This document shows positions 6,173 through 41,166 of a stretch of 41,166 bases of DNA, piece by piece (the first letter of the stretch is position 1; each line of letters starts with the position of its first letter). The notes beneath the pieces were generated by a model. It was given only the letters and a program-made list of their open reading frames with translations, ran no database searches and had not been told where the DNA came from. The stretch lies in the IMG/VR virus record IMGVR_UViG_3300037882_000312; one strand, written 5' to 3'. Position numbers and translations under genes: made by a program. The stretch comes from a virus.

Positions 6173-6372
6173 AGGTAACTAAATCTCGTTCATTTATTAA
6201 ATCTATTAGTTATAGAATTTTTGGAACTTTAAGTTCTTTTCTTGTTGCTTATGTCATAACAGGAAAGGGAACCCTATCCGCTTTAATTGCTTTTTGGGAG
6301 ACGGTTATCAAGGTAGGAATTTATTATTGGCATGAAAGAATTTGGAACAAGATAGGTTGGGGAAGGAAATAA
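6169..6372 (+). CDS. Small two-TM membrane protein (67 aa), DUF2061-like.
   Basis: SISYRIFGTLSSFLVAYVITG...VGIYYWHERIWNKIGWG matches my memory of the DUF2061 signature (YR..gt...f...y..tG ... YY.HERvWn). The start overlaps the upstream stop (ATGA). Confidence 0.6.
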   Translation: MKVTKSRSFIKSISYRIFGTLSSFLVAYVITGKGTLSALIAFWETVIKVGIYYWHERIWNKIGWGRK

Positions 6373-8567: not shown

Positions 8568-9144
8568 ATACCCTAACTGGTTTAACATTGCAGCTAAGGG
8601 CTACTTCAGCGAATACCTTCAAGAGTTCAAGGGTAAGCCAAACCTTCACTTCTTACAGATAGGTGTCTATACCGGCGATGCCAGCCTATGGCTGATGAAG
8701 AACATACTTACTGACAAGAGTTCCATCCTTACGGATGTTGATACTTGGCAAGGATCTGATGAAGAGATCCACCATGAGATGGACTTCTCAGATGTCGAGA
8801 AAGTCTACGATGACAAGTTAAAAGATTTTTCTAATGTAATTAAATGCAAGATGGAAAGCCATAAGTTTCTTGCAACCACAGATGATAAAGAGATCTACGA
8901 TTTCATATACATCGATGGAGATCACACAGCACAAGCAGTATTTATAGATGCCAGCCTAGCGTGGAAAGCACTTAAGCCCGGTGGGATTATGGCATTCGAT
9001 GATTATCTATGGGAGCTAGATGCCCCAATCAATCTGCGGCCACAAGCCGCCATTGATCTATTCATTATCTTGATGAAAGACCACTTAACTTTAATAGGAA
9101 CAGGTTCCCAAATATGGATAAGAAAAGAGTTAGAGGCCTACTAG
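8539..9144 (+). CDS. Class I SAM-dependent methyltransferase (201 aa), Methyltransf_24/TylF-like.
   Basis: FLQIGVYTGDASLWL is the SAM-binding motif I. DFIYIDGDHTAQAVFIDASLAWKALKPGGIMAFDDY is the typical IDgdH...pGG..v.dD pattern. Confidence 0.7.
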   Translation: MTSSHPSESKYPNWFNIAAKGYFSEYLQEFKGKPNLHFLQIGVYTGDASLWLMKNILTDKSSILTDVDTWQGSDEEIHHEMDFSDVEKVYDDKLKDFSNVIKCKMESHKFLATTDDKEIYDFIYIDGDHTAQAVFIDASLAWKALKPGGIMAFDDYLWELDAPINLRPQAAIDLFIILMKDHLTLIGTGSQIWIRKELEAY

Positions 9145-10544
9145 CAGTATTCTTCTTAACTTTCGGAACATCAATCTGGTTTATACCAGCATCTCATGCA
9201 GTAAGCACAGGGCCAGCGACAATTACTTGTGCAAAGTCAGATGGAACACAACAGACATTTAATGTTCAATGGGATAACAGTAATTCTTACTTCAATGGTA
9301 AGGGTGATATTGCTAGGTTATTCTGTGAAGGTGGACACGCAGGTAACCAGTTCACAATCTTTGTATCAACATCAGTAACTGATGGGCCACTTCGTTATTA
9401 CAACGGAGTTATGCCTGATCCAACTCCTGCTCCGACTCCGGAAGCTTCTCCATCTCCGAGTCCAACACCGACTCCAACTGAGACTGCAACTCCTTCACCT
9501 GAGCCGACAGCCGACCCAACAGCATCTCCGAGTCCTTCTCCCTCACCTGAGCCTTCACCAAGTCCGACTTCAGCACCATCAAATGAGCCTGCGACTGAGC
9601 CAAGCCCGACTCCAACTCCTGTAGCTTCACCTTCTGCGGAGCCGACCCCTGAACCAAGCCCACAACCCAGCCCGACAGAAACCCAAACATCAGAGCCAAC
9701 GCCAACACCATCTGTTGATCCATCTCCTACACCTTCCCCTGATACTTCAACGGCTGTAACCCCTGTTCCAGCCCCTGTAGAACCTACACCTGCCCCGGCT
9801 CCAGAACCTCAACCGACTCCTCAACCTGTACCAGATCCGGTACGAGAGCCAGAACCGGTGCCGACTCCAACTCCTCTTCCAGATCCTCAGCCTCAACCAA
9901 CCCCACTTCCAGAGCCAACTCCAGCACCTCAGCCCGAACCTGCTCCATCTCCTGAGCCGTTACCCGAACCACCTGCTCCAGAGCCTGAACCACCAGCTCC
10001 AGAACCCGAAGCAATTCCGGATCCTGCCCCTGAGCCAGAGCCTGTTCTAGAGCCAGAGGTAGTTCCTGATCCACCAGCTCCTGAACCTGAGCCTGAACCT
10101 CCATTACCGGTTGAACCTCAGCCAGAGCCAGAACCTGAACCTGCTCCAGAGCCTGTGACAGAACCTGATGAACCTACGCAACCTGAACCCCCTGTTGTAA
10201 TACCTGAAGAAAATGTTACACCCGATGTGGTCGTACTCACAGACGACACGGATCTTGAATCATTGGATCCACAAACTCCAATCGAGTTAGAGAACGGTGT
10301 AGTTCTAACAGCAGAGGTAGTAATTGCGTTGCAGTTATTTGAAAACCCAGCGGAATTACTAGCCGAGATTTTTACAGATCCCGGACAAGTTCTCACAGCA
10401 CTATCCAACATAGGTGCCGACCTATCCCCAGAGGTTCGTGCAAGTGCAGAGAAAGTAATTGTTTCAGCGATCATCGCAGGAAACATTGCAACTCAAGCAG
10501 CGGCTGGGGCCGCCGCAGCAGCAGCCTATAGGAGGAAACCATGA
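9114..10544 (+). CDS. Secreted/membrane-anchored proline-rich envelope protein (476 aa).
   Basis: There is an N-terminal signal or anchor (LLAVFFLTFGTSIWFIPASHA). A small Cys-containing domain follows, then about 265 aa of PT/PS/PE/PEP repeats. The C-terminal domain ends in a hydrophobic stretch plus a basic tail (AAGAAAAAAYRRKP). Confidence 0.75.
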   Translation: MDKKRVRGLLAVFFLTFGTSIWFIPASHAVSTGPATITCAKSDGTQQTFNVQWDNSNSYFNGKGDIARLFCEGGHAGNQFTIFVSTSVTDGPLRYYNGVMPDPTPAPTPEASPSPSPTPTPTETATPSPEPTADPTASPSPSPSPEPSPSPTSAPSNEPATEPSPTPTPVASPSAEPTPEPSPQPSPTETQTSEPTPTPSVDPSPTPSPDTSTAVTPVPAPVEPTPAPAPEPQPTPQPVPDPVREPEPVPTPTPLPDPQPQPTPLPEPTPAPQPEPAPSPEPLPEPPAPEPEPPAPEPEAIPDPAPEPEPVLEPEVVPDPPAPEPEPEPPLPVEPQPEPEPEPAPEPVTEPDEPTQPEPPVVIPEENVTPDVVVLTDDTDLESLDPQTPIELENGVVLTAEVVIALQLFENPAELLAEIFTDPGQVLTALSNIGADLSPEVRASAEKVIVSAIIAGNIATQAAAGAAAAAAYRRKP

Positions 10545-18964: not shown

Positions 18965-19372
18965 TTACTTGCCGTAGTCTTCCTTTAGGAATTTGCCACA
19001 GTAAGGCCAAGGCTTAGAGCCTCGATCAACATAGATGTGAAGAGCTACATAGAACTGTTCGAGCAAGGTGGAATCCTTCGGTTGCTTGCCGCTGCTGCCA
19101 CCATGTGCAACCCAAGTCCTTGGATACTCGATCTGGAATGCCCCCTGAAACTGTTTGCGTTTGCCGCTGACGGCGTTGAGACGACCAGATGATTCACACA
19201 TAGCCAATTTCTGCCACGAAACCGGCAGTTGATCCAAAGATAAGTCCGGAATCTCTACAACTTTTGGAACTACCTCTTTAGGTTTTATCTCGAGGTGAAT
19301 CGGGGCGTTTGGGGTCAGCGTAATCGCCAACCCCAAAGCCACCAATCCGATTATGAATCGGTGATGCATCAT
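18965..19372 (-). CDS. rpf: Rpf-type (resuscitation-promoting-factor-like) transglycosylase with an N-terminal signal/anchor (135 aa).
   Basis: The start moves to ATGATG at 19372, with aaggag directly upstream. The TM segment is HHRFIIGLVALGLAITL. VSWQKLAMCESSGRLNAV...FQGAFQIEYPRTWVAHGG...LEQFYVALHIYVDRGSKPWPYCG matches W..LA.CES.G...GG.QF...W...GG...Q..A....G..WP.CG. Confidence 0.8.
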   Translation of the reverse strand: MMHHRFIIGLVALGLAITLTPNAPIHLEIKPKEVVPKVVEIPDLSLDQLPVSWQKLAMCESSGRLNAVSGKRKQFQGAFQIEYPRTWVAHGGSSGKQPKDSTLLEQFYVALHIYVDRGSKPWPYCGKFLKEDYGK

Positions 19373-19493
19373 TTCTCCTTCCACATCAGGGCTGTAACCA
19401 GCCCGAGCATAGGTATTACCATGAGTAGTGGTTGCCCCTCGGCTATCCCAACAGGGAGAGTAAAGAACAACAGAATGAATAAGAGGAATCCAA

Positions 19494-19967
19494 TCATAGG
19501 CTAACCTCTTCACCAAAGTCCTCGATTGACCACCATTCTTCACCCGAGAATCCAGCTCGAGCCTCGGAATCTTGAAGCCAATAGAACACTTTATCGTCAT
19601 GCGGTAGTTCAGATGTTTCTCCATTGAATCCATAAGGAATAACTCCAAGGGTTGTAGTTATCTGCCTCTTACTCTTGTCCTCTTGGTCTGTAATCTCCAG
19701 AGTTGCAGAGTAATAAAGCGGATTCATAAGAGCCTCAGAAATTACAGGGTTAGTTGTCTCGAAATCATTCATAATTCTTAGCGAATTACCAAGCCTTCTC
19801 GACATAACATCTTCTAACTCCATAAGAACAGGGCTACTAGATCCGATTGACTCAAAGTTGCCGTTGATTTCAACAGTTCCATCAAGCCGATTAGATTCTT
19901 GGTCTGTATCCCACTCCCAAGTCTTAGTCTCGGTGTCGTAGGTGATGATGAAAGAATGGCGAGTCAT
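19494..19967 (-). CDS. Hypothetical acidic protein (157 aa).
   Basis: Long ORF. The start overlaps the upstream stop (ATGA). Confidence 0.6.
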   Translation of the reverse strand: MTRHSFIITYDTETKTWEWDTDQESNRLDGTVEINGNFESIGSSSPVLMELEDVMSRRLGNSLRIMNDFETTNPVISEALMNPLYYSATLEITDQEDKSKRQITTTLGVIPYGFNGETSELPHDDKVFYWLQDSEARAGFSGEEWWSIEDFGEEVSL

Positions 19968-20206
19968 AACTCCACCTCGCTAGTGACAGGGAATCCATTG
20001 ACCTCAACGATAACTAAGTCATCACTTATGACTTCATTTATCTGCTTGCTATCTATCGTGCAAGCCTCGACAAACCAGTCGCTATCGTTACGAATCCAAT
20101 CGCTTGCCTCTTCCACAGTCTTGAACTCTTTCATTGTGTAAGTGGCGTGTTCATTCATCAGGTTTCCCTTGATGTCTCGGACTTCATACTTCACATGAAT
20201 AGGCAT
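19964..20206 (-). CDS. Hypothetical protein (80 aa).
   Basis: Translationally coupled at both ends, with a gaggtggag SD upstream. Confidence 0.6.
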   Translation of the reverse strand: MPIHVKYEVRDIKGNLMNEHATYTMKEFKTVEEASDWIRNDSDWFVEACTIDSKQINEVISDDLVIVEVNGFPVTSEVEL

Positions 20207-20589
20207 TACTCCACCTCGAGTTTCTTTACTGTGCCAGTCTCATCTTCTTCGAGACCGGTATAGATAAGAATCTGTCCGTCATTATCTCTTTCGAAAGTAG
20301 CACTAGGTATTAGTTCCAATACCTTGGTGCATAGCCAATCGAAACTCTTCTCGTTCTCTTCGCATTTTTCTTGGCATACATCAAAGAGAGAATCTAAATC
20401 ATCAGCCCAATCGGGTTGAGAAATCTTCTTCTCTTCAGAGTTATACCACTCGTCATGCAATCCATACTCGCCAATGAATCCGACCCAGTAATAAGTGTCG
20501 CCTTCATGCTCGAGAGTCATGCGGTATTTGGTTTCAATAGAAAAGTTATCAGCCTCGATAACCTTTATGTCGCTGTCTTTTATTTGCAT
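20206..20589 (-). CDS. Hypothetical acidic protein (127 aa), first gene of a leftward sub-operon.
   Basis: Long ORF preceded by the conserved 20-nt leader motif at 20598-20617. Confidence 0.6.
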   Translation of the reverse strand: MQIKDSDIKVIEADNFSIETKYRMTLEHEGDTYYWVGFIGEYGLHDEWYNSEEKKISQPDWADDLDSLFDVCQEKCEENEKSFDWLCTKVLELIPSATFERDNDGQILIYTGLEEDETGTVKKLEVE

Positions 20590-20597
20590 TTCTCTTT

Positions 20598-20617
20598 CTT
20601 TCTGTAGGTTGGTTGGT
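20598..20617 (-). promoter_or_regulatory. Conserved 20-nt leader element, copy A. The mRNA sense reads ACCAACCAACCTACAGAAAG.
   Basis: ctttctgtaggttggttggt is identical to 21741-21760. It lies 8 nt upstream of the ATG at 20589 and downstream of the hairpin at 20640-20663. Confidence 0.6.
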
Positions 20618-20639
20618 ATCCAAGACGAATACCCGAAGA

Positions 20640-20663
20640 GGCAGGGAGAGAATTCCCCCTGCC
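20640..20663 (-). terminator. Hairpin after the 20674..20841 gene.
   Basis: ggcaggg-agagaattcc-ccctgcc forms a perfect 7-bp stem. The downstream sequence is only moderately T-rich. Confidence 0.45.
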
Positions 20664-20673
20664 CTATCGGCTA

Positions 20674-20841
20674 CTAATCTTTCAGCTTGGTAAGGTCAAT
20701 CATGTGAGTCGCTGTCTTGCTTTCTTCAGCGTTAGCCCTATCGGTAATCCACCACTCAAGCCCTTCGAGTCTCTTGGCGAGGTCATGGTTTGCCAATGGA
20801 TCACTAGAATAAATCACGACCCAAGTCTTATGAACAGTCAT
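20674..20841 (-). CDS. Small hypothetical protein (55 aa). It is not in the supplied ORF track.
   Basis: Hand translation gives MTVHKTWVVIYSSDPLANHDLAKRLEGLEWWITDRANAEESKTATHMIDLTKLKD. The start overlaps the upstream stop (ATGA), and gaggggg lies upstream. Confidence 0.55.
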   Translation of the reverse strand: MTVHKTWVVIYSSDPLANHDLAKRLEGLEWWITDRANAEESKTATHMIDLTKLKD

Positions 20842-20930
20842 TCAATCACCCCCTCTCGGCACTTATTGCAATCACAATTCGCCACACAAATCGGGCAGTC
20901 GGTAGTGCAGTCTCCTGCATGAATAGTCAT
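20838..20930 (-). CDS. Cys-rich microprotein (30 aa, 6 Cys).
   Basis: Hand translation gives MTIHAGDCTTDCPICVANCDCNKCREGVIE. A gaggtg SD lies upstream and the stop overlaps the next start. Confidence 0.5.
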   Translation of the reverse strand: MTIHAGDCTTDCPICVANCDCNKCREGVIE

Positions 20931-20939
20931 AGCCACGCT

Positions 20940-21050
20940 TTACACCTCGCAGTCATGACCATAAGCCCACTCTTGCGAGTCGGTATCGTCTAGTAAATCA
21001 AAGACCCGAGAACACTCGGGGCATCTCGCCTTAGTCGGAATCGTAGGCAT
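20940..21050 (-). CDS. Small zinc-ribbon-like protein (36 aa).
   Basis: Hand translation gives MPTIPTKARCPECSRVFDLLDDTDSQEWAYGHDCEV. The C.eC...fDL.....EW.yGHDCE pattern recalls a small actinophage family. The start shares one nt with the upstream stop. Confidence 0.55.
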   Translation of the reverse strand: MPTIPTKARCPECSRVFDLLDDTDSQEWAYGHDCEV

Positions 21051-21196
21051 TACTTATCCCCCTCGCTGTCGCCTTCACCGCTTGACCGCTTTTGGCAGTC
21101 GCATTTGCAGCACTCGCAACCGCAGTCATTCGAGTATTCACCGCAGGTTTTGCATAGCCAGTTCGAGCATTTGCAATCATCACACATTACGGGCAT
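21050..21196 (-). CDS. Metallothionein-like Cys-rich microprotein (48 aa, 11 Cys).
   Basis: Hand translation gives MPVMCDDCKCSNWLCKTCGEYSNDCGCECCKCDCQKRSSGEGDSEGDK. A gaggggcggtg SD lies upstream. Confidence 0.55.
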   Translation of the reverse strand: MPVMCDDCKCSNWLCKTCGEYSNDCGCECCKCDCQKRSSGEGDSEGDK

Positions 21197-21202
21197 GAAG
21201 AA

Positions 21203-21370
21203 TCACCGCCCCTCTTCTGGAAAGTAGCACTCGATAGAACTCTTGAAGCAGTAGCGGTCTCCGACCCAGTTCAGGTGGTCGAGACCCCACATAATTAGCC
21301 CGAGCAAAAGCAGGGCATTTATTGCAAGCGATACGGCGAGGACTATCTCGCCTCTCTTATTGAGTTTCAT
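21203..21370 (-). CDS. Small single-TM protein (55 aa).
   Basis: Hand translation gives MKLNKRGEIVLAVSLAINALLLLGLIMWGLDHLNWVGDRYCFKSSIECYFPEEGR. The start overlaps the upstream stop. Confidence 0.55.
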   Translation of the reverse strand: MKLNKRGEIVLAVSLAINALLLLGLIMWGLDHLNWVGDRYCFKSSIECYFPEEGR

Positions 21371-21729
21371 TAGGCGGATTCCTTACCCTCGACAGTATCC
21401 TGCCAAGTCTTATTGCCCCAGTCAGGGTGAGACCTAAAGCAAGAGCCATAGTAGGCAACATCTCCGAGGTCATCACAAAAAACATTTTCGAGCTGAGCCT
21501 TGATAGTTGCCTTACCGCTACGAGTAAAGATTCTCCTTACTGTATAGAGGTCATTCCAAGCGAGGTCAATCGTTAGCGAGTAGCCATTAGAAATCGGGAG
21601 AGTGATACCAGTTTCACGCTGTAGCACTCGCCCACCGCTAATCGCTAGGAGATTATTTCTGCCGAGTTGCCGGACAATTTCGCCGCAATCAACTGGGCGG
21701 AATTCACTTTCTTTATTCTGTTGATCCAT
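21370..21729 (-). CDS. Conserved actinophage-type hypothetical protein (119 aa).
   Basis: Long ORF preceded by leader-motif copy B. The ISGGR ... DLYTVRR pattern resembles a family of unknown function that I recall from actinophages. Confidence 0.6.
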   Translation of the reverse strand: MDQQNKESEFRPVDCGEIVRQLGRNNLLAISGGRVLQRETGITLPISNGYSLTIDLAWNDLYTVRRIFTRSGKATIKAQLENVFCDDLGDVAYYGSCFRSHPDWGNKTWQDTVEGKESA

Positions 21730-21740
21730 TTACTTATTCT

Positions 21741-21760
21741 CTTTCTGTAGGTTGGTTGGT
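21741..21760 (-). promoter_or_regulatory. Conserved 20-nt leader element, copy B.
   Basis: It is identical to 20598-20617 and lies 11 nt upstream of the ATG at 21729. A partial copy, ttctgtaggt, sits at 22457-22466 upstream of the ATG at 22443. Confidence 0.6.
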
Positions 21761-21797
21761 TATGCCTCGGGGATTCGATTCCCTTAGACATAAAGCA

Positions 21798-21823
21798 AGG
21801 GCGAGACTCGAAAGCCTCGCCCT
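21798..21823 (-). terminator. Hairpin upstream (in minus-strand sense) of leader-motif copy B.
   Basis: agggcgag-actcgaaagc-ctcgccct forms an 8-bp stem. On the minus strand it is followed by ttgctttatgtc. Confidence 0.5.
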
Positions 21824-21833
21824 CACTTTATTA

Positions 21834-21953
21834 CTAAGCGACTATCGCCTCGATACCTGCTCGGCTATACGCCCTCACTAGGGCATTGAGTCGAGTCTTG
21901 GAAAGTGGGGCGAATACCAACACCTCCCGAGTCTCAGAATCGAGGAGAGTCAT
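21834..21953 (-). CDS. Possible small protein (39 aa).
   Basis: Hand translation gives MTLLDSETREVLVFAPLSKTRLNALVRAYSRAGIEAIVA. It fills the gap between the 21961 stop and the hairpin, but there is no clear SD. Confidence 0.3.
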   Translation of the reverse strand: MTLLDSETREVLVFAPLSKTRLNALVRAYSRAGIEAIVA

Positions 21954-21960
21954 AAAGGGT

Positions 21961-22443
21961 TTATCGGCTCGCATTGACTAGCACCTCCTCGAGGTCTTTC
22001 AGACCTGCCTCGACTTTATGGTGCAACTCATTACGCATAGAAGCGAAAGAGGCAGGAGGCCAACCTGCACCGAATACTCGGCGGAGAAGCAAGGCGAGAG
22101 AGTGTCCATTCACTAACTCGAGAGCCTTATCGAGTGCCTTATTCGCCTCGGCTACCTGCCCCAACTCATAAAGATAAGCCCCTCGAATCGCCTCGAGTGC
22201 TGCCGAATCTTGCCCGAGTAATCCGAGGGCGGTAATAAAGGCGAGAGAATCCTCGCTATCTAAGGTGATACCTATTGCACCGAGTGCATAGTCTCGAATC
22301 TGCACACTCTCGGCGATTCCAAGAGTGGCGGTCTTGATTGCAACCTCCTCGAGCATTCTCGAATCTTGGAAAGAATCCAAGAGTGAATCGAGTGCATTCT
22401 TAGCCTCGAGGTGAGTAGGTAAATCGGTCTTGATGTCTTTCAT
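21961..22443 (-). CDS. Hypothetical helical-repeat protein (160 aa), first gene of the leftward unit.
   Basis: Long ORF adjacent to the divergent control region. It is Ala/Leu-rich and looks helical and TPR-like. I recognised no catalytic motif. Confidence 0.6.
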   Translation of the reverse strand: MKDIKTDLPTHLEAKNALDSLLDSFQDSRMLEEVAIKTATLGIAESVQIRDYALGAIGITLDSEDSLAFITALGLLGQDSAALEAIRGAYLYELGQVAEANKALDKALELVNGHSLALLLRRVFGAGWPPASFASMRNELHHKVEAGLKDLEEVLVNASR

Positions 22444-22610
22444 AGTAATTGCCTCATTCTGTAGGTAATGAATCGAGAGAGAGATTCCCTCGAGGTCTCA
22501 ATTATGAGGTTTCAGCTCGAAAGAATCAAGCACCTATTAGATCGTGTTGCCGGTAATTGACCCCCTCGAAAGTAAGCGAATTACAAGGGTTTCAGAGATA
22601 CCAGAGAATC

Positions 22611-22657
22611 AAGACCCGAGACCCAAGGCAAGACCCAAGACCCCAAGACCCCAAGCC
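22611..22657. repeat. Degenerate tandem array of AAGACCC(C) units, about 6 copies.
   Basis: The sequence reads aagacccg agaccc aagg c aagaccc aagacccc aagacccc aagccc. It is followed by the complementary core GGTCT repeated at 22663, 22673, 22696 and 22749. Confidence 0.8.
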
Positions 22658-22967
22658 CTCGAGGTCTGCCAAGGTCTGCCCGATTCCCTGCCCTAGGTCT
22701 TAGGCGATTGCTAACAAGGGCAAGACTAAATCGTGCCTAGTCTCGGGCGGTCTGCCCTGCCTCGAGTCTGTCCGACACGCCGTAAATCTTGGTTTACATA
22801 ATGTTAGTTATCGGCTTAGGGGGGTCAGACACGCAGGGGAGACAAATTGACCCGAGTGCTTATAACGGCTGGGGCCCCTGTATATATGTACCCAGAAAAA
22901 TATTTTTGATAGGATCTCGAGCTGTAAAATAGGCTCTGACCAGCACTTTTACACACAATGGATAAAA

Positions 22968-22983
22968 TGTGATACAAATCACA
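22968..22983. promoter_or_regulatory. Perfect CRP/GlxR-type palindrome TGTGA-N6-TCACA.
   Basis: aaaTGTGAtacaaaTCACAggg lies in the AT-rich part of the divergent control region. Confidence 0.5.
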
Positions 22984-22994
22984 GGGCATAGTGT

Positions 22995-23015
22995 GGGATA
23001 AAACCCATTTATCCC
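22995..23015. promoter_or_regulatory. Perfect 8-bp inverted repeat, gggataaa-accca-tttatccc. It is an operator candidate.
   Basis: Read directly from the sequence. A half-site, ggataaaa, also occurs at 22960-22967. Confidence 0.45.
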
Positions 23016-23036
23016 GGCTTATATATAGTAGGAGGA

Positions 23037-23058
23037 TAATTACTTGCTAAAGTAATTA
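23037..23058. promoter_or_regulatory. Perfect 8-bp inverted repeat, taattact-tgctaa-agtaatta. A 7-bp GC hairpin, ccggctc-tagg-gagccgg, follows at 23069-23086.
   Basis: Read directly from the sequence. It lies about 160 nt upstream of the terminase start. Confidence 0.4.
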
Positions 23059-23216
23059 GACGACTACACCGGCTCTAGGGAGCCGGAGCGAGCCCTAGCG
23101 AGCAAAGGCGACCTAAAAGCCCCTAGTAAATGCCCAGTAGTCTGTTCTTTTTCAGAACCGCTAAACCCAATGAAAAATCTTTGGCGACCACGCCAGCGAA
23201 GCTGGCGAGGAGAGAT

Positions 23217-25070
23217 ATGAGTAAACAAGAAGAGACAGCCAAGATCAAGGCAAAAGTAATCCGTCTGATTACAGAGGGTTGCACAGTCGAAGATGCCATG
23301 CGGCAGGTCGGCAGATCAGCAAAGCTATGGGATTACTACCGCTCCACGGATAAAGAATTCAAGGAGACTGTAGACAAGGTTCGTGCTGCTAGATCAAAGC
23401 ATGGCCGTATCCAGTCTGAGGAATCCCTCACGATGGACTTCCGTACTTTCCGCAAGGAGTATCTAGAAGCAGACACCTTTCCACATCAGATGAATATCAT
23501 CAACCTTCTTGAAGGTAATGAACCTGAGTGGATGCATAGCTCTATGCAATTTGAGCAAGGCCGCCCCCAGTATGTTCTGGTGAATGTGCCCCCTGAACAC
23601 GCCAAGTCAATGACTACCTCGATTGACTATCCGGTATATCGAATCTGTATGGATCCCAATGTCCGTATCATGATTGTCTCGAAGTCACAGCAGAAGGCAA
23701 CAGAATTTATCTACGCTATTAAACAGCGTTTGACTCACCCATCGTGGCAGAAGCTACAACTCGCTTACGCTGCTGGCTCAGGCTTCAAGTCTAAGTCAGC
23801 CACATGGCAGGCTACGCAAGTCTACCTCGGAGACGAACTGCGTGACTCAGACCAGAAGGATCCTACGATTCAAGCAATCGGTATCGGAGGACAGGTATAC
23901 GGTGCGAGAGCCGACCTGATTATCCTAGACGACTGTGTAACTATGTCGAATGCCCACGAATACGAAAAACAGATTCGATGGATTCAACAGGAAGTCCTTA
24001 CTCGTCTCGGGCCTACCGGCAAGCTTTTAGTTTTGGGAACTCGAGTAGATTCCATTGACCTTTATAGAGAACTCCGTAATGGTGAACGCTATCCAACAGG
24101 TAAATCACCTTGGACATATCTGGCCATGCCAGCAGTTCTAGAGTTTGCAGAAGACCAAAAGGACTGGAAAACACTTTGGCCTAAATCAGACCGCCCTTGG
24201 CAGGGCAGCGATGAAGAGGCAGACGAAGACGGTCTATACCCACGCTGGGATGGCAAGTATCTATCCATGCGTAGAAGTGCATTAGACCCAAAGACTTGGT
24301 CGATGGTTTACCAGCAAGCAGATGTTGATGAGGACTCAACCTTCAACATGACTTGCGTTAAAGGTTCTATCGACAGAATGAGAATGATCGGGCCAATCGT
24401 TCCGGGCAATCCCGGACACCCCGAGACAGTAGAAGGTCTCACCATCATCGCAGGGCTTGACCCAGCGATAGTTGGTGATACGGCGGCAGTCGTCATGGCT
24501 GTAGATCGTAGACGGAAGAAGAGATACATCTTGGATGCCGCTACGATTACTAAACCGTCACCGCAAGCCATCCGTGATCTCATCACTACATTTACGGAAA
24601 AGTATAAACCATCGGAATGGATGGTTGAACGAAACGCCTTTCAGGGTTATCTGACACAGGATGAGAATTTACGGCAATGGTTAGCAAGTCGTGGTGTGCT
24701 TCTTCGGGAACACACTACTTCTAGAAATAAGTGGGATGTTGGATTTGGTGTCGCTGCAATGGCTTCCTTGTTTGGAAGCGTTGAATCCAATGGTAAGCAC
24801 CATCGAGATAACTTGATGCACTTACCTTCAGATAGACACGAAGGCATCCGATTACTTATTGACCAGTTAGTAACATGGTCGCCAGAGACTAAGAACAAGA
24901 CAGACCTTGTTATGGCCCTCTGGTTCTGTGAGATTAGAGCAAGAGAGATCTGCCAGTTTGGTGAGTATGGCGGAAAGTTCGTACACAATGAATTCCTCAC
25001 CCGAGCAGATGCCGAAAAGCGACAGGTCATCAACCTTGATGAGTGGGCCGCAGATCGCCGTTTGGCATAA
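23217..25070 (+). CDS. terL: Terminase large subunit (617 aa) with an N-terminal HTH, small-terminase-like DNA-binding domain.
   Basis: The start moves to the ATG at 23217, with gaggagag upstream. The HTH-like N-terminus is IKAKVIRLITEGCTVEDAMRQVGRSAKLWDYY. The ATPase motifs are VNVPPEHAKSMT (Walker A-like) and ADLIILDD (Walker B). The nuclease domain begins at IIAGLDPA. Confidence 0.8.
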   Translation: MSKQEETAKIKAKVIRLITEGCTVEDAMRQVGRSAKLWDYYRSTDKEFKETVDKVRAARSKHGRIQSEESLTMDFRTFRKEYLEADTFPHQMNIINLLEGNEPEWMHSSMQFEQGRPQYVLVNVPPEHAKSMTTSIDYPVYRICMDPNVRIMIVSKSQQKATEFIYAIKQRLTHPSWQKLQLAYAAGSGFKSKSATWQATQVYLGDELRDSDQKDPTIQAIGIGGQVYGARADLIILDDCVTMSNAHEYEKQIRWIQQEVLTRLGPTGKLLVLGTRVDSIDLYRELRNGERYPTGKSPWTYLAMPAVLEFAEDQKDWKTLWPKSDRPWQGSDEEADEDGLYPRWDGKYLSMRRSALDPKTWSMVYQQADVDEDSTFNMTCVKGSIDRMRMIGPIVPGNPGHPETVEGLTIIAGLDPAIVGDTAAVVMAVDRRRKKRYILDAATITKPSPQAIRDLITTFTEKYKPSEWMVERNAFQGYLTQDENLRQWLASRGVLLREHTTSRNKWDVGFGVAAMASLFGSVESNGKHHRDNLMHLPSDRHEGIRLLIDQLVTWSPETKNKTDLVMALWFCEIRAREICQFGEYGGKFVHNEFLTRADAEKRQVINLDEWAADRRLA

Positions 25071-27261: not shown

Positions 27262-27637
27262 AGGCCCATACATTGGTAGGCAAGCAGCACAATCCATTAC
27301 CGGTGGAGCATACGGTGAGAACACAGAACTCACACAATTACAGACCGCTCCCGGAGTTCCATTAGCAGCAACTGAAACAGGTGCAATGGGTGGGGGAATG
27401 GGCCCCATGATTGCAGCACCTGCTATGCCAAACAGAAACTTTTCTACACCAAATCCAAATGTAGATCAAGAGATTACATATGGTGCAGGTTTTGGTGCTG
27501 GCCCGGGTAATGAAGTATTACCTATTCCACCACAAGCACCGGATGAAACTGCCACACTTGTCCGTCAACTTATTGCCCTATATCCAGATCCAGACTTGGT
27601 TCGATTAGGTCAAAGATTAGATTATGAGAAGCGTTAA
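27254..27637 (+). CDS. Hypothetical virion-module protein (127 aa).
   Basis: The start moves to the ATG at 27254, with ggagg upstream. The stop overlaps the start of the giant gene. Confidence 0.55.
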   Translation: MAEGPYIGRQAAQSITGGAYGENTELTQLQTAPGVPLAATETGAMGGGMGPMIAAPAMPNRNFSTPNPNVDQEITYGAGFGAGPGNEVLPIPPQAPDETATLVRQLIALYPDPDLVRLGQRLDYEKR

Positions 27638-30600
27638 TGGCAGGAAAAACCGGAGGCACATTTGGTGCTGGTAGTCTCGGTGCATCGCTAAGTTCAATTC
27701 CTCAAGAAGGAACAGCAGCTTACGATACATACATTCAAGCCCAGCAATCTAAGTATTTAAGTCCAGATTTTGCCAAGCAGTTAGCTGCTATGGCTAAGGC
27801 ATACCCTGCTGCATCTGTCGGCACCGTAATGGGTCTTACAAAATCTGGAGCCCCTATCGGTGGCAATACAGCCAATGCTATGACCACACTCGATGGATCA
27901 GCATTGATTGATGCACAGCGTAACGCAGCCATTGCTGCTGCTGCTAAGTTGAAGGAACAGAACTCTGCAAAGAAGGGTTCACCTGCTGACTTCTTAGCAC
28001 CACTTACTCGTACTGCTTTCATGCTTTTATCAACACCATTTGAAATGCTAGAAGCCACCGTTCGTAACGGTGTATCTGGCAAGGGTGGCATGAATGTTCT
28101 TGATGAGACTCAAACAGGGCAAGCTCTTATCAACCTTTTCAAAACAGGCAAGATTGATGTAGGTACTGGTTTTCTTGGTGCAGATCAAAACTCTGCGGTA
28201 GGTAAAGCATTACTTAATGCAAAGATTGCTGCTGGCCCTACTATGAAGGGTGGAGTTCCTTGGACTTATTCAAGTGGACTTACACAAGCATTATTCGATA
28301 ACCCAGAGACTAAGGCCGCTAGAACATTCCAAGCGGTTTCAGGATTCGTTCTTAACCTAGCAGCAGACCCACTTACTTATGTTCCCGGTGTAGGTTTACT
28401 TAAGATCGGTAAAGAAGCTGGAAAGGTTGGCGTAACACTTCGTGTTGGGCCAAAGGCCGCAGCTCGTGCAGCAGAAGCGAAGGCAGCACCGATCAAGGCT
28501 GTGGCTCGTGATGTTGAAGATGTCATGGGTGAAGTCGGTAAAGTCCGTGCAGAAGCAAGAGCTGCATCTGGCGACATCAATATGCTTGAAGCAGACATTA
28601 TCAAGCACCAAGATGATCTCAACACTATCGCCGAAAAGGTAGATAACACATACCAGACTTATTACAAAGCAAAGTCTGAAGCAGATTTATTAGATGCAGA
28701 ATACGGTCAACTCCGTCAACAGCGTGACACTTTACTTGCAGGACTTAAGTCTGCACAGGATACAAGTGGTCAGCTTGTTGGACAGGCTCGTAAGGCTGAA
28801 GACCTTATGGCTCACCGTATTGAACTCAATACTGCTGGTCGTGCAGCAGAAGTTCAAAGCATCCTTGATGAAAAAGGTTTTGATGAGGTAGTCCGTGTAG
28901 GACAAACACTCACAGAGCAAGAGCAGTTGGCTCCCGGACTTATCCATACTCTTGATGAAGCAGCACTTAAAAAGGGTGATCGTGCAGCAACTCAAGGTAT
29001 CCGTAATGGAGTAGATGCTGTAGTTCGTGTAGCAGCAAAGCAGAAGCCACGCCTTATCAAGTGGACAGGTCTTATCAAGGCTGGAGATTCACCACAGGCA
29101 ACTCGTGTATCTAACGAGATTGGTTCCAACCTTATTGATATTGGAACTGCTGCTGGTATCCAAGAGTCTAAGTTGCAGACTGTTCTCGATGTAATCGATA
29201 CACCCGGTGCAACACACGCAGAACTTATTGATTCAGCAAAGAAGGCTGGACTAACAGAACAACTATTTGCAGCATATGAAAGAGCCGGTATCCAAGGCTT
29301 TGAAAATGTTGGTGCAACTCGTGGCATGGGTGGTGGCGGATACGCTTACTTCCCACGAACAGTAGATCCATTCGATGCAAAGATTTCTGACTTTGGTCGC
29401 TTCAAGGCTGATGCTATTAACTCACCTGACATCAACGATCTTGGTGTTCAAGCACTTACAACTAAGGGTGCAATTACCCAGCAGGTTACAGGGCTAGTCG
29501 AAGGTGCAGCAGCACCTCGCCTTACAGTCATGGAACAACTTGCCAACATAAACAAAGAGCTTTCCGAAATGGGCAAGGTTACAAAAGGTGTCCAAAAGGA
29601 ACTCGCCAAGGCTGAAGAGGCTTGGAAGAATAATCTTAAGTATGTTCAAGATCGAGTCAAGTCTGATGATGAGGCTCGTATGCTTCTTGAAGAAGCACGA
29701 GGTCGCAAGCAATTAGCGATGGAAGCAGAGTTTGGTCTTATGACCATAGGTGGTAAGCAGATCCTTGATTACCAGCAAGCTGCTAAAGCATTCTTTGGCC
29801 CAATGGGTCAGAACGCTGCAAAGTTTATTGCTGTCCACTATGGCCCAGAACAATACGATGATCTATGGCGAGCAATGAATGGCAACATCACAGTTGATCT
29901 AGCCAAGCGTTTGGCTGCTGCTACTTCTGAAAAAGAAGTTATGGGATTACTTGCCGGTGAAGTTGGCCTAGAACTATCTCGTGGAACCAGAGTTGGACTT
30001 GCAGCTCAGTCTCGTGCAATCCAGTTCCAATCAAGTTTCTATGCACCTAACTCATTGAAGTTACACCATGAAGGTTTTGCTAACTTCCTGCTTAACGCAG
30101 AGAATGAAGCACGATCATTTTTGAGGACTAATAAAGTAACTGCACCATTCACACGGTTTGCACCTACTAAGAATCTTATTCACCTAGACGATGTAGATAC
30201 ATTGGTCAAGGAAATGAATGACACTTTGCCATTCCTTAAGGCATCTCCTGAACTACAGAAGACATCCATTAAGGCAATGATGGCTGCTACAACCTCGACT
30301 GAACGCTTCAATGTATTCATTGACACGCTTAAGTCTTTGGTTAAGGAGAAGGCTCCTAACCTAACAGAAGAACAAATCCGTATGCTTAATGATGCGGCTC
30401 GAGTATTTAAGAAGGAAGCAGATGCTAACCGAAAGTTCTTGGCACAAGTTGCTGGCAAGGACATCGGAACAAGAGAATTTAAGGTCGCTGGAAAGACCCA
30501 GAAGTTCACTCAGTTGGATCCGCTTATTGACTCTCAACTTGCAAATTTTATCAAGTGGCCTGACATCGACTCAATCCGTCAGCTCACAGGAAAGACTAGA

Positions 30601-33546
30601 AACCTTTTCTCACAGTCACAAAATGCACAGCAACTCAGAACAGTAACTACTGATCTATTCGATTCATTCTTCAAGCAGACAGTTCTCGTAGGTCGTGTTT
30701 CATACATCCTACGAAATGTTGGTGATATGCAGGTTCGTTCATTCCTTGGTGGATCTACAACCTTGTTCAATCACCCATTGCAGTTTGCTGCAATGATGAT
30801 GGCTAACCCAGAGGGTAATGCAATCGCTAAGTTTGCTAGTCGCTGGTCTCGCTTCGATAACACAGTCTTTGGAACAAACTTTAATAAAGCAGTTGAAGAG
30901 CTTGATGCAGTTGGCTTTAAGTCAGCGGCACTTGCAGATGCAGATAAGTTTGCCGTAATGATGTCTCGATCTATCGGCGTTGGTATGGGGCAAGGCACTC
31001 GTGGTCTTTCACAGATCCTACCTACCGGTATGCGTTTCATTACACCAGAAGAACGAGGATTCAATCGGGCATGGGCCGGAGCAATCCTTCAGTTCCGTGA
31101 GTCAGCAATGGCTCGTCTAGTTGCAGGTGGACTCGATGGTGGCATCAAGGGTGCAAATGGAAAGATTACTCCTTGGTTCAAAGAAGCAGAATCTTTCATT
31201 GCCAAGAAGCAAGCACAAGGCATGGATCTATCTCGTGATTATGAGAAGTTTATTGTTGACTTTATGTTTGAGACAGAGCAGGGAATCTTGCTTCGTACAC
31301 AGATTGCCAAGGTTGATGAACTCAATCGTGCATTGATGCTTGATGCAGATGAGGCTATTGCTCGTCAAGCTATGGAGAATTACTTCAAGGTAGTTACAGA
31401 AGGTGTCGATAACCTATCTGGTGGCCGCCGAGAACTGCGTGACTTTATTGCCGGTAAGGCAATGGTTGCTGTAGACGGCAAGAGAACTCCCGGATTCAAT
31501 CCAAAGGGAACTCAGTCAAAGGATGTATGGCTTGCCAATATCCTTAAGGGATATGTTGATTCAACAGACATCTCAAAGGCTATCGGTCAACTCAAGCTTC
31601 CAACAGATGATGTTCGTGCCGTTGCATCCTTCAAGGGTCAATGGGATCGTGCAGCATCTAAGTTCTTCCAAGTCTCTGCATCGATTGAAAAGCGAGCAGC
31701 ACTTGGCCCAGAGTTTAAGCAGCAATACTGGAACGGTGTTGCAGAGAACATGAACCTTCTTACCAAGGATGAGGCAGTCAAGATACTTGCTATCGCTGAG
31801 AAGGAACTTCGTGGCGTTAAAGTCTTTGGACTTAAGGCAGGGTTTGAGAACCCATCATTGGTTCGTATGCGTGAGGCAATCAAGACACTCGATGATCGAG
31901 GACTTGCTGCTGATGATATGCATACAATCGCAAATAACTTTGCTGCTAATAAACTACAGAAGCTTTACTACGATGCAATGCGACAGAAGCAGTATGCAGT
32001 CGCAGCTCGTTTAGTGGCTCCTTTCGCAGCAGCGTGGGGTAACACTATTGCCACATGGAGTAAGTTGATTGGCACAGATGTAGCCAACACCTTCCGCCTA
32101 CAAGGCAAGGCTCGTACTTACAAAGCTGCTAATGCTTTTGAATTCTTGACTCACCCAGAGACTGGTGTCATTTACGAATGGACTGGTCAAAACTGGAATG
32201 ATCCAAGCCAAGGATTTATCTACAAGGATCCAACCTATGGTGATCCTCGTATGGTTATTCCTCTAGCAGGTAATGCACTTGGCTGGATGCTTTCAACAGC
32301 AACTGGTGAAGCAGTTCCATCGATGCCAACATCGCTATCGATTCCATCTTTGAACCTTGCATTCAGCAATGAATTGCTACCGGGTGTAGGCCCTGCTATT
32401 CAACTCTCATTGGGTCGAATAATTCAGAGCCAAGAAGGTTGGGCAGCAGATCAACTTCGCAATGTGATCTATCCGTTCGGAGCCCCTGAAGGCAAGACTG
32501 GAATTGTCGAGTCATTTACCCCTGCTTGGGCCCAACGAGTTCTTTATGGTCTAGGTGTTAACTCATTCGAGGAGAAGAGTATGTCTACTCTTCGACCATT
32601 GATGACATACCTTGCATCAACTGGTAACTATGGAGACTTCCCACTTGGTGGAGAAGCACAAGCAAAGCTTCTAGAAGATGCAGGTAAGGTCAACCGAGTC
32701 CTCGCTTTATGGCGTGGTATCACACAGAATGTGGCTCCCGGATCTATTGCACCTCAGATTCTTGCTAAGGACAAAGAAGGTGAACTCCATGTTCAGGCTC
32801 TTATGTTCAATGACTTCTTGCAGATCCGTGCAAACAACCCAGACAGTTATGAAATTGCTGTAGCCAAGTGGGCTGACAAGTATGGCGAGTCAGCACTCTT
32901 TGCTCTGGTATCTGGATCTCGTGGTGGTATTACACCTACTGGAGATGCATGGAACTTCTATCAGAACAACCGCAAGGATGCCAATGCCTTGCCAAATGCG
33001 TTTGCCCTCTTCTTCCCCGGTGGACAATACTCACAAGAATTTGCTAAATGGCAAGCACAGCGTGGCCAGCGATTCAAGTTATCACCTGCTGAAATGCAGA
33101 TGGAAGCGGCTCGTTATGTATACACAGCTCGTAAGGCTAAGTTACAAAGCGATGAGGCCATCGCTATCCAGCAAGGTGCAGATCCAAAGCAAGCCCATCA
33201 GGTCTACATGACTCGTAAGGCAGCAATGGATGATGACTTTGGTGGACAGCCAGACTTCCGTGCAGCAGGTGTTCCTCGTGAGACACTCGTTAAAGAAGTA
33301 ACTCAGGCTCTTAGTAACCCTAAGTTTGCTGAAACTGAATCAGGTAAGGGCTTGGCTAAGTTCTTACAGGCTCGTGAATCAGCGTTGAATTCTGTTGCAG
33401 AAGCAGGATACAAGACACTTACAGGTAAAGCTGTTGAAAATGTAGCACAATGGTTAGACCAAACTGCTTACCAGATAATCTCCGAACACCCAGATTTCTC
33501 TGTAATGTACTGGCGTGTATTTGCAACAGAGACAGGAAATAACTAA
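27637..33546 (+). CDS. Giant virion protein (1969 aa), candidate internal/ejection (DNA-transfer) protein.
   Basis: A single uninterrupted 5.9-kb ORF that makes up 14 percent of the genome. It is largely helical with coiled-coil stretches (about aa 290-420 and 620-680). It lies between the portal and scaffold genes. I recognised no catalytic motif. Confidence 0.7.
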   Translation: MAGKTGGTFGAGSLGASLSSIPQEGTAAYDTYIQAQQSKYLSPDFAKQLAAMAKAYPAASVGTVMGLTKSGAPIGGNTANAMTTLDGSALIDAQRNAAIAAAAKLKEQNSAKKGSPADFLAPLTRTAFMLLSTPFEMLEATVRNGVSGKGGMNVLDETQTGQALINLFKTGKIDVGTGFLGADQNSAVGKALLNAKIAAGPTMKGGVPWTYSSGLTQALFDNPETKAARTFQAVSGFVLNLAADPLTYVPGVGLLKIGKEAGKVGVTLRVGPKAAARAAEAKAAPIKAVARDVEDVMGEVGKVRAEARAASGDINMLEADIIKHQDDLNTIAEKVDNTYQTYYKAKSEADLLDAEYGQLRQQRDTLLAGLKSAQDTSGQLVGQARKAEDLMAHRIELNTAGRAAEVQSILDEKGFDEVVRVGQTLTEQEQLAPGLIHTLDEAALKKGDRAATQGIRNGVDAVVRVAAKQKPRLIKWTGLIKAGDSPQATRVSNEIGSNLIDIGTAAGIQESKLQTVLDVIDTPGATHAELIDSAKKAGLTEQLFAAYERAGIQGFENVGATRGMGGGGYAYFPRTVDPFDAKISDFGRFKADAINSPDINDLGVQALTTKGAITQQVTGLVEGAAAPRLTVMEQLANINKELSEMGKVTKGVQKELAKAEEAWKNNLKYVQDRVKSDDEARMLLEEARGRKQLAMEAEFGLMTIGGKQILDYQQAAKAFFGPMGQNAAKFIAVHYGPEQYDDLWRAMNGNITVDLAKRLAAATSEKEVMGLLAGEVGLELSRGTRVGLAAQSRAIQFQSSFYAPNSLKLHHEGFANFLLNAENEARSFLRTNKVTAPFTRFAPTKNLIHLDDVDTLVKEMNDTLPFLKASPELQKTSIKAMMAATTSTERFNVFIDTLKSLVKEKAPNLTEEQIRMLNDAARVFKKEADANRKFLAQVAGKDIGTREFKVAGKTQKFTQLDPLIDSQLANFIKWPDIDSIRQLTGKTRNLFSQSQNAQQLRTVTTDLFDSFFKQTVLVGRVSYILRNVGDMQVRSFLGGSTTLFNHPLQFAAMMMANPEGNAIAKFASRWSRFDNTVFGTNFNKAVEELDAVGFKSAALADADKFAVMMSRSIGVGMGQGTRGLSQILPTGMRFITPEERGFNRAWAGAILQFRESAMARLVAGGLDGGIKGANGKITPWFKEAESFIAKKQAQGMDLSRDYEKFIVDFMFETEQGILLRTQIAKVDELNRALMLDADEAIARQAMENYFKVVTEGVDNLSGGRRELRDFIAGKAMVAVDGKRTPGFNPKGTQSKDVWLANILKGYVDSTDISKAIGQLKLPTDDVRAVASFKGQWDRAASKFFQVSASIEKRAALGPEFKQQYWNGVAENMNLLTKDEAVKILAIAEKELRGVKVFGLKAGFENPSLVRMREAIKTLDDRGLAADDMHTIANNFAANKLQKLYYDAMRQKQYAVAARLVAPFAAAWGNTIATWSKLIGTDVANTFRLQGKARTYKAANAFEFLTHPETGVIYEWTGQNWNDPSQGFIYKDPTYGDPRMVIPLAGNALGWMLSTATGEAVPSMPTSLSIPSLNLAFSNELLPGVGPAIQLSLGRIIQSQEGWAADQLRNVIYPFGAPEGKTGIVESFTPAWAQRVLYGLGVNSFEEKSMSTLRPLMTYLASTGNYGDFPLGGEAQAKLLEDAGKVNRVLALWRGITQNVAPGSIAPQILAKDKEGELHVQALMFNDFLQIRANNPDSYEIAVAKWADKYGESALFALVSGSRGGITPTGDAWNFYQNNRKDANALPNAFALFFPGGQYSQEFAKWQAQRGQRFKLSPAEMQMEAARYVYTARKAKLQSDEAIAIQQGADPKQAHQVYMTRKAAMDDDFGGQPDFRAAGVPRETLVKEVTQALSNPKFAETESGKGLAKFLQARESALNSVAEAGYKTLTGKAVENVAQWLDQTAYQIISEHPDFSVMYWRVFATETGNN

Positions 33547-41152: not shown

Positions 41153-41166
41153 TGGCAACTGGTACC
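41068..41166. repeat. Terminal direct repeat, copy 2, identical to 1-99.
   Basis: Base-by-base comparison with the start of the window. Confidence 0.95.

Follow-up and report, generated by a model that had tools for sequence, protein, structure and literature searches.

A modular non-coding gap in front of the terminase gene of a podovirus-like phage and its reading as a genome-end region

What is the function of the longest non-coding stretch of a phage genome when it lies directly in front of the large terminase gene? The question is raised by the IMG/VR virus record IMGVR_UViG_3300037882_000312, a 41,166-nt stretch of DNA that was analysed as a whole and is called the window here. The gap occupies positions 22444–23216, between the first gene of a leftward block (21961–22443, − strand) and TerL (23217–25070, + strand), the T7-like large terminase and first gene of the rightward structural block. 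The initial annotation of this DNA proposed that the gap is a replication origin, a pac or cos site or the physical genome ends, or a set of operators for a lysis-timing switch. The explanation favoured here, with a chance somewhat better than even, is that the DNA comes from a freshwater actinobacterial podovirus with a short direct terminal repeat (DTR), and that the gap holds its genome-end (concatemer-junction) region, fused to the start of the late (TerL) transcription unit.

The two ends of the window (1–99 and 41068–41166) are identical, and this exact 99-nt overlap of the k-mer type lies inside coding sequence. The window is therefore a circular assembly with a true length of ~41,067 bp and an arbitrary start point. 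Rightward genes begin with TerL and portal and continue with structural, lysis, and replication genes up to 18703, and a short leftward block (18965–22443) adjoins the gap. When open reading frames (ORFs) of at least 60 amino acids (aa) were masked, the gap was the biggest ORF-free stretch, as the initial annotation had claimed. Its length is 686 nt when counted as far as an in-frame ATG upstream of TerL and 773 nt when counted as far as the start that TerL probably uses, most likely the ATG at 23217 with GAGGAG in front of it.

Genome ends of relatives and the predicted terminal repeat

A search with TerL retrieved hundreds of IMG/VR contigs, including a close clade with 87–100% aa identity and a large clade with 55–58%. 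In protein searches, the nearest cultured phages were the 'Ca. Planktophila' phages LanE43AprE7 and LanE43AprF5 (E7/F5), whose TerL is 50% identical. Next came the Streptomyces podoviruses of cluster BF, whose TerL is 42–45% identical over 98% of the length. The window has 23 genes in common with E7/F5. It has at least 15 in common with the BF phage Manuel, including TerL (44% identical), portal (43%), capsid, tail proteins, helicase, primase, and sigma factor, and Manuel displays the same layout of leftward genes, gap, and TerL. A search of GenBank phage DNA with the gap gave no match.

Comparison across the IMG/VR contigs reveals that the gap is non-coding and modular throughout the family. 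Short repeats that differ from lineage to lineage fill the hypervariable left half, and the right half (22800–23216) equals the TerL coding sequence in conservation and contains the single-copy landmarks. When profiled, the 55% (freshwater) clade aligns to window positions 22820–23038 (nhmmer E = 4e-18). Among contigs of the window's own clade, at most 32% align left of 22650, 42–64% align at 22650–22800, and 83–94% align at 22800–23000; in other words, the alignments have a mosaic boundary at 22650–22850.

The order of the modules, anchored on CTTATATATAGTA, is the same in 63 of 81 TerL-upstream regions and in more than 100 further contigs. The left part consists of short-repeat arrays, a 'TGCCG..GGTAGT GCGCCCC' element that resembles the left DTR boundary of BF phages (element B), and a slot with lineage-specific repeats that look like binding sites. 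These are followed by GACCCCCC-TTGTTGAAT (element D), by TATATAC^TCCCC and the A-rich AAATATTT (module 1; ^ marks a boundary), and by GCTCTGACCTGC. The series ends with TGTGA-N6-TCACA, a hairpin, CTTATATATAGTA and then GGGG, a second hairpin, the leader, and TerL.

Where do the genomes of the cultured relatives end? In BF phages, TerL is gene 1 and starts 624–679 nt from the left physical end, and at the right end leftward genes are accompanied by over 1 kb of DNA without genes. Exact DTRs are present in four BF phages from three genera, namely FlowerPower (253 bp), Manuel (276 bp), Immanuel3 (275 bp), and WRightOn (264 bp), and TerL starts 348–404 nt after the DTR. A BF phage announcement describes 253-bp DTRs, podovirus morphology, and experimental termini based on reads (PMC9753666). 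The DTR boundaries are conserved among BF phages, the left one being ..GGTAGGTACA^GTCCC(A/C)TCTCCC and the right one ..GGGGAGTG^AGTCCCC. The closest cultured TerLs with determined termini all belong to BF phages with a DTR. Furthermore, TATATATA and perfect TGTGA-N6-TCACA are both unique to the gap, and occur in the same order, in the window and in Manuel, a 45-kb genome with 60% GC.

The right boundary of the predicted repeat comes from a fixed spacing. Element D is GACCCGAGTGCTTATAACGG in the window (22849–22868, + strand), GACCCCCCnTTGTTGAAT in freshwater relatives, and ACCCGGGGGTTGTTAAAC in BF phages. In each of the four BF phages, the DTR boundary follows the ACCC of this element at a distance of exactly 39 nt, and ^TCCCC follows it at 39 nt in 33 of the 40 distinct sequences from freshwater. 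In the window, the ACCC at 22850 is located 39–40 nt before the equivalent point, and the right boundary is therefore predicted at 22888/22889. This point lies directly before TACCC and 7 nt before an AT-rich palindrome, both within module 1 (TATATATGT ACCC AGAAAAATATTTTTGATAGGATC, 22880–22915, + strand). Boundaries at ~22914 (GATAG^GATC) and ~22938 (CTCTG^ACC) were also considered and judged less likely than 22888, given the 39-nt rule.

The left boundary has two candidates. BF phages carry a TGTCC/GGACA repeat theme in which GGACA occurs mostly just before the DTR and TGTCC arrays occur inside it (three of the four phages). In the window, the switch from AGACC to GGTCT at ~22660 (^GTCTGCC at 22663) would be one candidate. 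The other would be ^GTCTGCC at 22750, which follows a 'GTGCC TAGT' element. The resemblance of the left boundary to that of BF phages was judged by eye only. The BF DTRs, the 39-nt rule, and the mosaic boundary together suggest a DTR at 22663–22888, present as a single copy in the circular assembly. Its right end is predicted at 22888 ± 2, and its left end is uncertain (22663 or ~22750), which would give a length of ~140–226 nt.

Contigs of relatives terminate far more frequently in the gap than outside it. Their ends were collected in three sets (80 TerL loci, about 120 pattern loci, and 32 metagenome contigs). Ten of 81 contig left ends fall within a 28-nt stretch at element B, which is ~75 times the background. 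The use of contig ends as proof of physical termini was rejected because they never fall on one base. They appear to mark an assembly-break hot spot where hypervariable DNA meets ultra-conserved DNA, which is compatible with physical ends and no proof of them. As a separate observation, CTTATATATAGTA is broken by four independent contigs, two of which end at CTTATAT/C (L214, L220) and two of which start at TATATATAGTA or ATATATAGTA (L047, L034). These breaks have a 4–5-nt overlap, and the four observed against about 0.9 expected by our own estimate are too few to interpret. A few further contigs break at the left half of the TGTGA palindrome.

Of the three functions in the initial annotation, physical ends near the terminase gain the best support, although it is indirect: the BF relatives carry their ends and a DTR in the homologous gap. 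The proposal of a pac or cos site or genome ends holds for the ends, given the BF analogy and the shared single-copy landmarks at matching spacings, but the expected type is a short DTR rather than cos. A cos site was rejected because TerL relatives with mapped ends are DTR phages, and the contig breaks in CTTATATATAGTA are only suggestive.

How would such a junction be processed? The virion DNA would be linear, with a ~140–226-bp DTR that ends near 22888 and was collapsed to one copy by assembly. A T7-type terminase would cut concatemers at both repeat boundaries, in each case just before a C-run motif (left ^GTCTGCC.., right ^TACCC), and an extra N-terminal domain of TerL may bind DNA. TerL matches phrog_38 (8e-65), and its best NCBIfam model is termin_lrg_T7 with an E-value of 1.7e-23, which is below the curated cut-off. 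The extra domain spans ~75–100 aa, and residues 7–65 show a weak match to phrog_4102 (small terminase). A PDB sequence search with the N-terminal 118 aa gave no meaningful match. In exact-protein look-ups, TerL with either of two start choices and the 160-aa leftward protein were not on record.

The repeat arrays located at or left of the left boundary, together with the slot inside the repeat, would serve as sites for accessory proteins. These proteins could be host DnaA in ~20% of relatives and other host or phage proteins in the window, and the sites may serve replication initiation and/or junction architecture beside the AT-rich AAAAATATTTTT. Downstream of the repeat, a unique promoter module would drive a structured leader of ~190 nt and TerL. 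This module would combine a CRP-type palindrome whose centre is ~60 nt ahead of the start, a hairpin that covers the −35 region, and TATAGT as the −10 element, with transcription starting near GGAGG (23031–35). A genome-end element of this general kind is known from T7-like and BF phages. The present architecture with sites resembling those of host factors was not in the literature found.

The putative promoter module and leader, and the repeat arrays

The conserved right half contains landmarks of different kinds. The leftmost after module 1 is CTCTGACCAGC (22934–22944, + strand), a single-copy family-conserved motif whose BF counterpart, GCCTCTGACCTGC, is inverted and lies in the right arm. 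There it is found ~355 nt before the right DTR copy (FlowerPower L082 and equivalents in Manuel, Immanuel3, and WRightOn). In freshwater relatives, this 11–13-mer is direct and located between the predicted repeat and the palindrome.

The next landmark is a perfect CRP/GlxR-type palindrome, TGTGATACAAATCACA, at 22968–22983, 40 nt upstream of TATAGT. TGTGA-N6-TCACA is unique in the genome and conserved in relatives and BF phages, and the distance from its end (TCACA) to TATA(A/G)T is 39–40 nt in both the freshwater group and BF. The palindrome probably behaves as a protein site on duplex DNA because its sequence is conserved, its folding shows no strand asymmetry, and it matches the CAP/GlxR consensus (consensus from PMC10187061).

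Hairpin 1 (GGGATAAA/TTTATCCC, 22994–23016, + strand) shows compensatory changes across the family. In the alignment, 87.8% of cells are paired, compared to 31–61% in slid controls. Double changes number 19 versus 6.8 in shuffles, and none of 500 shuffles was as high. The pair types run from GC through GU to AU, and one pair is GU in 22, GC in 17, and AU in 4 cases. Across the family, the + strand gives the more stable fold of both hairpin 1 and hairpin 2 (in 62 of 75 sequences for hairpin 2), which points to a structure of + strand RNA or of single-stranded DNA.

Directly after hairpin 1 comes CTTATATATAGTA (23018–23030, + strand), a near-invariant single-copy motif. It contains a good −10 hexamer, TATAGT (23024–23029), and is followed by the G-rich GGAGG and a 5' stem-loop. 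The idea that this motif represents a promoter type reused elsewhere was rejected, as CTTATATATAGTAGG was found only once with up to 3 mismatches allowed. The putative TerL 5' leader (23031–23216, + strand) contains stem-loops at 23037–23058, 23069–23086, 23143–23158, and 23188–23210, the last of which touches the GAGGAG Shine-Dalgarno sequence (23207–23212). The ~190-nt leader folds better than shuffles (z = −3.2), and in the window alone both strands fold equally well. Covariation within the close clade was uninformative because the leader is almost invariant there.

Do the inverted repeats represent operators of a lysis-timing switch? Those at 22968–83, 22994–23016, 23037–58, and 23069–86 are real, and no evidence was found for this role. 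They do not behave alike, comprising a CRP-type palindrome that is conserved in sequence, a compensating hairpin with G.U pairs on the + strand, and others that belong to the TerL leader.

The hypervariable left half holds most of the short repeats. On re-reading of the sequence at 21600–23500, every repeat and palindrome listed in the initial annotation was found at, or a few bases off, the positions given there. The first GGTTTCAG-N6-AGAATCAAG copy is at 22508–22530, and the second (22588–22613) has a spacer of 9 nt instead of the 6–8 nt described earlier. This pair (22508–22613, + strand) is present only in part of the close clade. The tandem CAAGACC(C) array at 22610–22657 (+ strand) has about six units; TRF reports 6.1 copies at period 7 and 3.5 copies at period 8 with 95% match. 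It belongs to the lineage-specific part and is opposed by the GGTCTGCC and CCTGCC repeats at 22662–22757 (+ strand). These comprise GGTCTGCC at 22662–70 and 22672–80, AGGTCT at 22695, and a CGGTCTGCC copy at 22748–56, and they hold both candidate left DTR boundaries. The composite motifs GATTCCCT-N2-AGGTCT (22483–22498) and GATTCCCT-N5-AGGTCT (22682–22700), the further GATTCCCT at about 21777–21784, and the 12-nt palindrome AAAAATATTTTT at 22896–22907 were likewise recovered.

Several of these words are concentrated in the gap when counts are compared with a uniform spread along the genome. The gap holds three of the four GTCTGCC copies in the genome (0.08 expected), four of the five CAAGACC copies (0.09 expected), and two of the three GATTCCC copies. 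AGACC and GGTCT occur five times each, against about 0.75 expected for each. The perfect TGTGA-N6-TCACA, TATATATA, and CTCTGACCWGC are each confined to the gap within the 41 kb.

How stable are the arrays among relatives? The CAAGACC/GGTCTGCC arrays are common to about half of the close relatives, and the remaining ones have GGATCC-rich or CCCTGCC-type repeats in their place. The face-to-face AGACC and GGTCT arrays emphasised in the initial annotation are real, but they lie in the hypervariable part and are swapped out in ~70% of close relatives. In the 55% clade, the slot from the boundary-like element to element D contains TAGACA-N13-TGTCTAAC, or GGCAGAC/GTCTGCC words, or perfect DnaA boxes. 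The window repeats at 22662–22757 occupy the slot equivalent to that of the DnaA boxes, TAGACA..TGTCTA, or GGCAGAC in relatives.

Competing readings and genome context

Several observations weigh against the genome-end explanation. A freshwater profile searched against the BF junctions was not significant (nhmmer E about 0.1), so that short motifs, with their order and spacing, are what the apparent homology of the non-coding modules to BF phages is based on. The DTR is predicted from the ends of relatives, and its left boundary is a guess between two candidates. In all three sets, contig ends are spread over tens of bases and many sites in the gap, with no single-base pile-up. One subclade has 55 nt between the palindrome and the −10 element, and in the cultured Planktophila phages E7/F5 the palindrome is found elsewhere in the gap; the promoter geometry is therefore not universal. 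A scan with the sigma-70 consensus gave no more sites in the gap than in shuffles. In addition, the G.U pairs of hairpin 1 on the + strand imply transcription or single-stranded DNA upstream of the proposed start, which a simple promoter model leaves unexplained.

Could the gap be purely a divergent control region? Early leftward and late rightward promoters would then share it, with regulator sites for host Crp, the phage ECF sigma factor, WhiB, or a phage repressor, and packaging would be located elsewhere or be headful, with no terminal repeat here. The gap does part oppositely oriented blocks, and it contains a weak candidate leftward promoter of the sigma-70 type (TTGATT-17-CATAAT, 22501–22529, − strand), whose −10 element is CATAAT, CACAAT, or CATACT in close relatives. 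The CRP-type palindrome upstream of TATAGT, the structured leader, and the phage-encoded ECF-type sigma factor and WhiB fit as well, and GGAAAT-N16-CTTATA in the hairpin region can be read as an ECF-type −35/−10 pair. However, the nearest cultured relatives with mapped termini have their ends exactly in this gap, and TerL is T7-like. The motifs are single-copy, so no promoter or operator type is reused, and the hypervariable arrays and the DnaA-box slot are left unexplained. This makes a purely regulatory gap rather unlikely. A gap that is chiefly a replication origin, one of the functions in the initial annotation, is unlikely. The repeats would act as iterons (bound by host DnaA in some relatives), the AAAAATATTTTT region would unwind, and helicase and primase would be loaded. 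An argument in favour comes from relatives: the slots of 20 of 100 distinct related sequences contain at least two (2–4) DnaA-box-like 9-mers, ~60–130 nt upstream of the conserved AT-rich element. Such 9-mers number 3.06 per kb within the slot, compared to 0.07 per kb over the remainder of those loci, a 44-fold local enrichment. Among them, L040, L049, L055, L038, L016, L070, and others carry 2–4 perfect DnaA boxes (TTATCCACA and its complement) ~60–130 nt upstream of 'CTAAAGTGA'. Helicase and primase are encoded, but no DNA polymerase or replication initiator gene was recognised among the phage proteins. The window slot has no DnaA box cluster, and one weak box, TTTTACACA, occurs at 22947. 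The CAAGACC units are tandem repeats of 7–8 nt rather than helically phased iterons, and the repeats are replaced wholesale in close relatives. The family-conserved AAAAATATTTTT lies in an AT-rich stretch of only ~12–20 nt. Cumulative GC skew is flat (0.54–0.56) across 21.5–24.5 kb, with turning points near 19, 10, and 3.5 kb, so the skew inflection that an origin might show is absent from the gap. The origin proposal stays plausible because of the DnaA boxes of relatives, but in the window it is backed by no DnaA cluster, skew signal, or recognised initiator.

A small non-coding RNA or attenuator encoded by the right half, starting near module 1 or the palindrome and ending at hairpin 1 with a UUAUAUAU tail, is very unlikely. 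Hairpin 1 covaries with GC, GU, and AU pairs on the + strand and was flagged as terminator-like, and both of its flanks are strongly conserved. However, its stem is A/T-rich and broken in several lineages, the tail is not a U-tract, and no conserved upstream promoter was identified. An Rfam scan of the gap gave nothing at gathering thresholds and, in a relaxed search (E ≤ 10), only chance snoRNA matches with E ≥ 3; a tRNA scan gave no match. A broader idea, quite unlikely as it stands, is that the genome end acts as a hub that senses host factors. A strictly conserved Crp/GlxR site at a fixed distance from the repeat boundary and the single late promoter, together with an exchangeable slot inside the repeat for DnaA in some lineages and other proteins in others, would couple late transcription, replication, and packaging to the cyclic AMP and replication state of the host, in a widespread lineage that spans soil Streptomyces phages to phages of streamlined freshwater Nanopelagicales. 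Alternatively, the palindrome would be the site of the TerL N-terminal domain in a terminase that works without a small subunit. The rival readings (control region, origin, and small RNA) are partly compatible with one another.

What does a genome-end region in this place mean? The hosts of these phages belong to the most abundant bacteria of fresh water. The predicted terminal repeat ending near 22888 and the landmarks shared with genetically tractable Streptomyces phages are concrete targets that can be tested. The organization of the gap also explains why metagenomic assemblies frequently break just upstream of TerL, because the hypervariable half abuts the ultra-conserved half. Should host factors truly act at the Crp-type site and the DnaA-box slot, a small lytic phage would tie its packaging and late expression to host physiology.

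The rest of the window (46% GC) provides some context. The phage encodes WhiB, an ECF-type sigma factor, a DnaB-like helicase, a primase, and a Cas4-like nuclease. Downstream of portal lies an ORF of 1969 aa (27637–33546, + strand) without a Pfam or PHROG match. A tblastn search (E ≤ 1e-4) gave no match to it in E7/F5 or in Manuel; the equivalent place in Manuel is occupied by a hypothetical protein of 1646 aa. Whether the 1969-aa product is an ejected or internal virion protein is raised here only as a question. The idea that it is an N4-like virion RNA polymerase acting on a hairpin promoter was dropped, since it has no family matches; the G.T tolerance on the non-template strand and the oddity of TerL as a first early gene also count against that idea.

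Other features are located further from the gap. The region at 4500–6500 is a low-GC island (32–37% versus ~46%) with small ORFs, possibly an acquired auxiliary gene cassette, and one of its products, a 248-aa protein, has an N-terminal P-loop kinase motif and a C-terminus that looks like a nucleotidyltransferase by eye. A 476-aa protein (9114–10544, + strand) has a long low-complexity core rich in Pro, Thr, Glu, and Ser, which causes a marked local drop in GC skew (−0.30) and spurious ORFs on the antisense strand. Tandem repeats of 9, 21, and 42 nt at 2235–2733 encode a Ser/Ala/Thr-rich repeat region of a 601-aa tail-fibre-like protein (1260–3065). A 107-aa ORF (40671–40994, + strand) is 90% identical to an E7/F5 protein, compared to 28–62% for other shared genes, which suggests recent exchange or strong constraint. 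The last leftward gene (18965–19648, − strand) encodes an Rpf-type transglycosylase-like domain (PF06737, E = 2e-10).

Comparison with known systems

The concatemer junction of phage T7 is the classical system with a similar plan. At its left end, T7 has a short and exact terminal repeat with arrays of short, imperfect repeats on its flanks, and just inside this terminal repeat are promoters and elements associated with the origin. The predicted layout of the window has a short repeat and a T7-type terminase as well, and its flanking arrays may resemble those of T7. Unlike T7, the window phage has no phage RNA polymerase and no T7-type promoters. Its TerL lies beside the end, whereas that of T7 lies near the right end, and the repeat words are unrelated.

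Theta origins with iterons or DnaA boxes are found in lambda ori, P1 oriR, and plasmid origins. The gap resembles them in its clustered short repeats beside an AT-rich element, although this element is only ~12–20 nt long, and 20% of relatives have true DnaA boxes in the slot. The window differs in having no DnaA boxes, adjacent initiator gene, or skew signal, and its repeats are spaced 7–10 nt apart.

Class I CRP/GlxR promoters (PMC10187061) are comparable to the promoter module, in which TGTGA-N6-TCACA is centred ~47.5 nt upstream of TATAGT. If transcription starts at the predicted point 6–8 nt after TATAGT, the palindrome would be centred at about −60 to −62, a position compatible with that of class I sites (near −61.5, or whole helical turns further upstream). 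The spacing varies in relatives of the window, where it is 55 nt or the palindrome lies elsewhere in the gap. A CRP role is a prediction, and the palindrome could equally be a site for the terminase or another phage protein.

The closest cultured phages, LanE43AprE7 and LanE43AprF5 (OX376640 and OX376641), were obtained on 'Ca. Planktophila' (Nanopelagicales), and their genomes were circularised by the authors, who did not determine the termini (PMC10202952). They belong to the same phage family as the window and have a gap of ~790 nt between the leftward gene and TerL. This gap holds TAGACA-N13-TGTCTA, a GACCCC..TTTAAAT element, TATATGTAC..CCC, ATATTTGCTAAAT, a hairpin and then TATATATA, and TGTGA-N6-TCACA. 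In contrast to the window, the palindrome or palindromes are found in the left part of this gap, close to the leftward gene, and the leader is much more AT-rich.

The BF phages (Beephvirinae: FlowerPower, Manuel, Immanuel3, and WRightOn) differ from the window in composition (60% versus 46% GC), their non-coding DNA cannot be aligned with it by profile search, and their replication genes are on the other strand. Their repeated words are TGTCC/GGACA rather than GGTCT/AGACC. They have two palindromes, 28–29 nt and about 85 nt after the boundary, whereas the window has one, ~80 nt beyond the boundary predicted for it. BF phages have a proven DTR and the window a predicted one. Nevertheless, both have TerL as the first rightward gene with leftward genes opposite (the BF leader being ~620–680 nt), and both have arrays of short pentamers in both orientations around the repeat. 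Both also display the same order of single-copy elements, consisting of ACCC..TTGTTAA, a C-run 39 nt further on (the DTR boundary in BF phages), TGTGA-N6-TCACA, a hairpin, and TATATATA followed by a G-run 39–40 nt after the palindrome.

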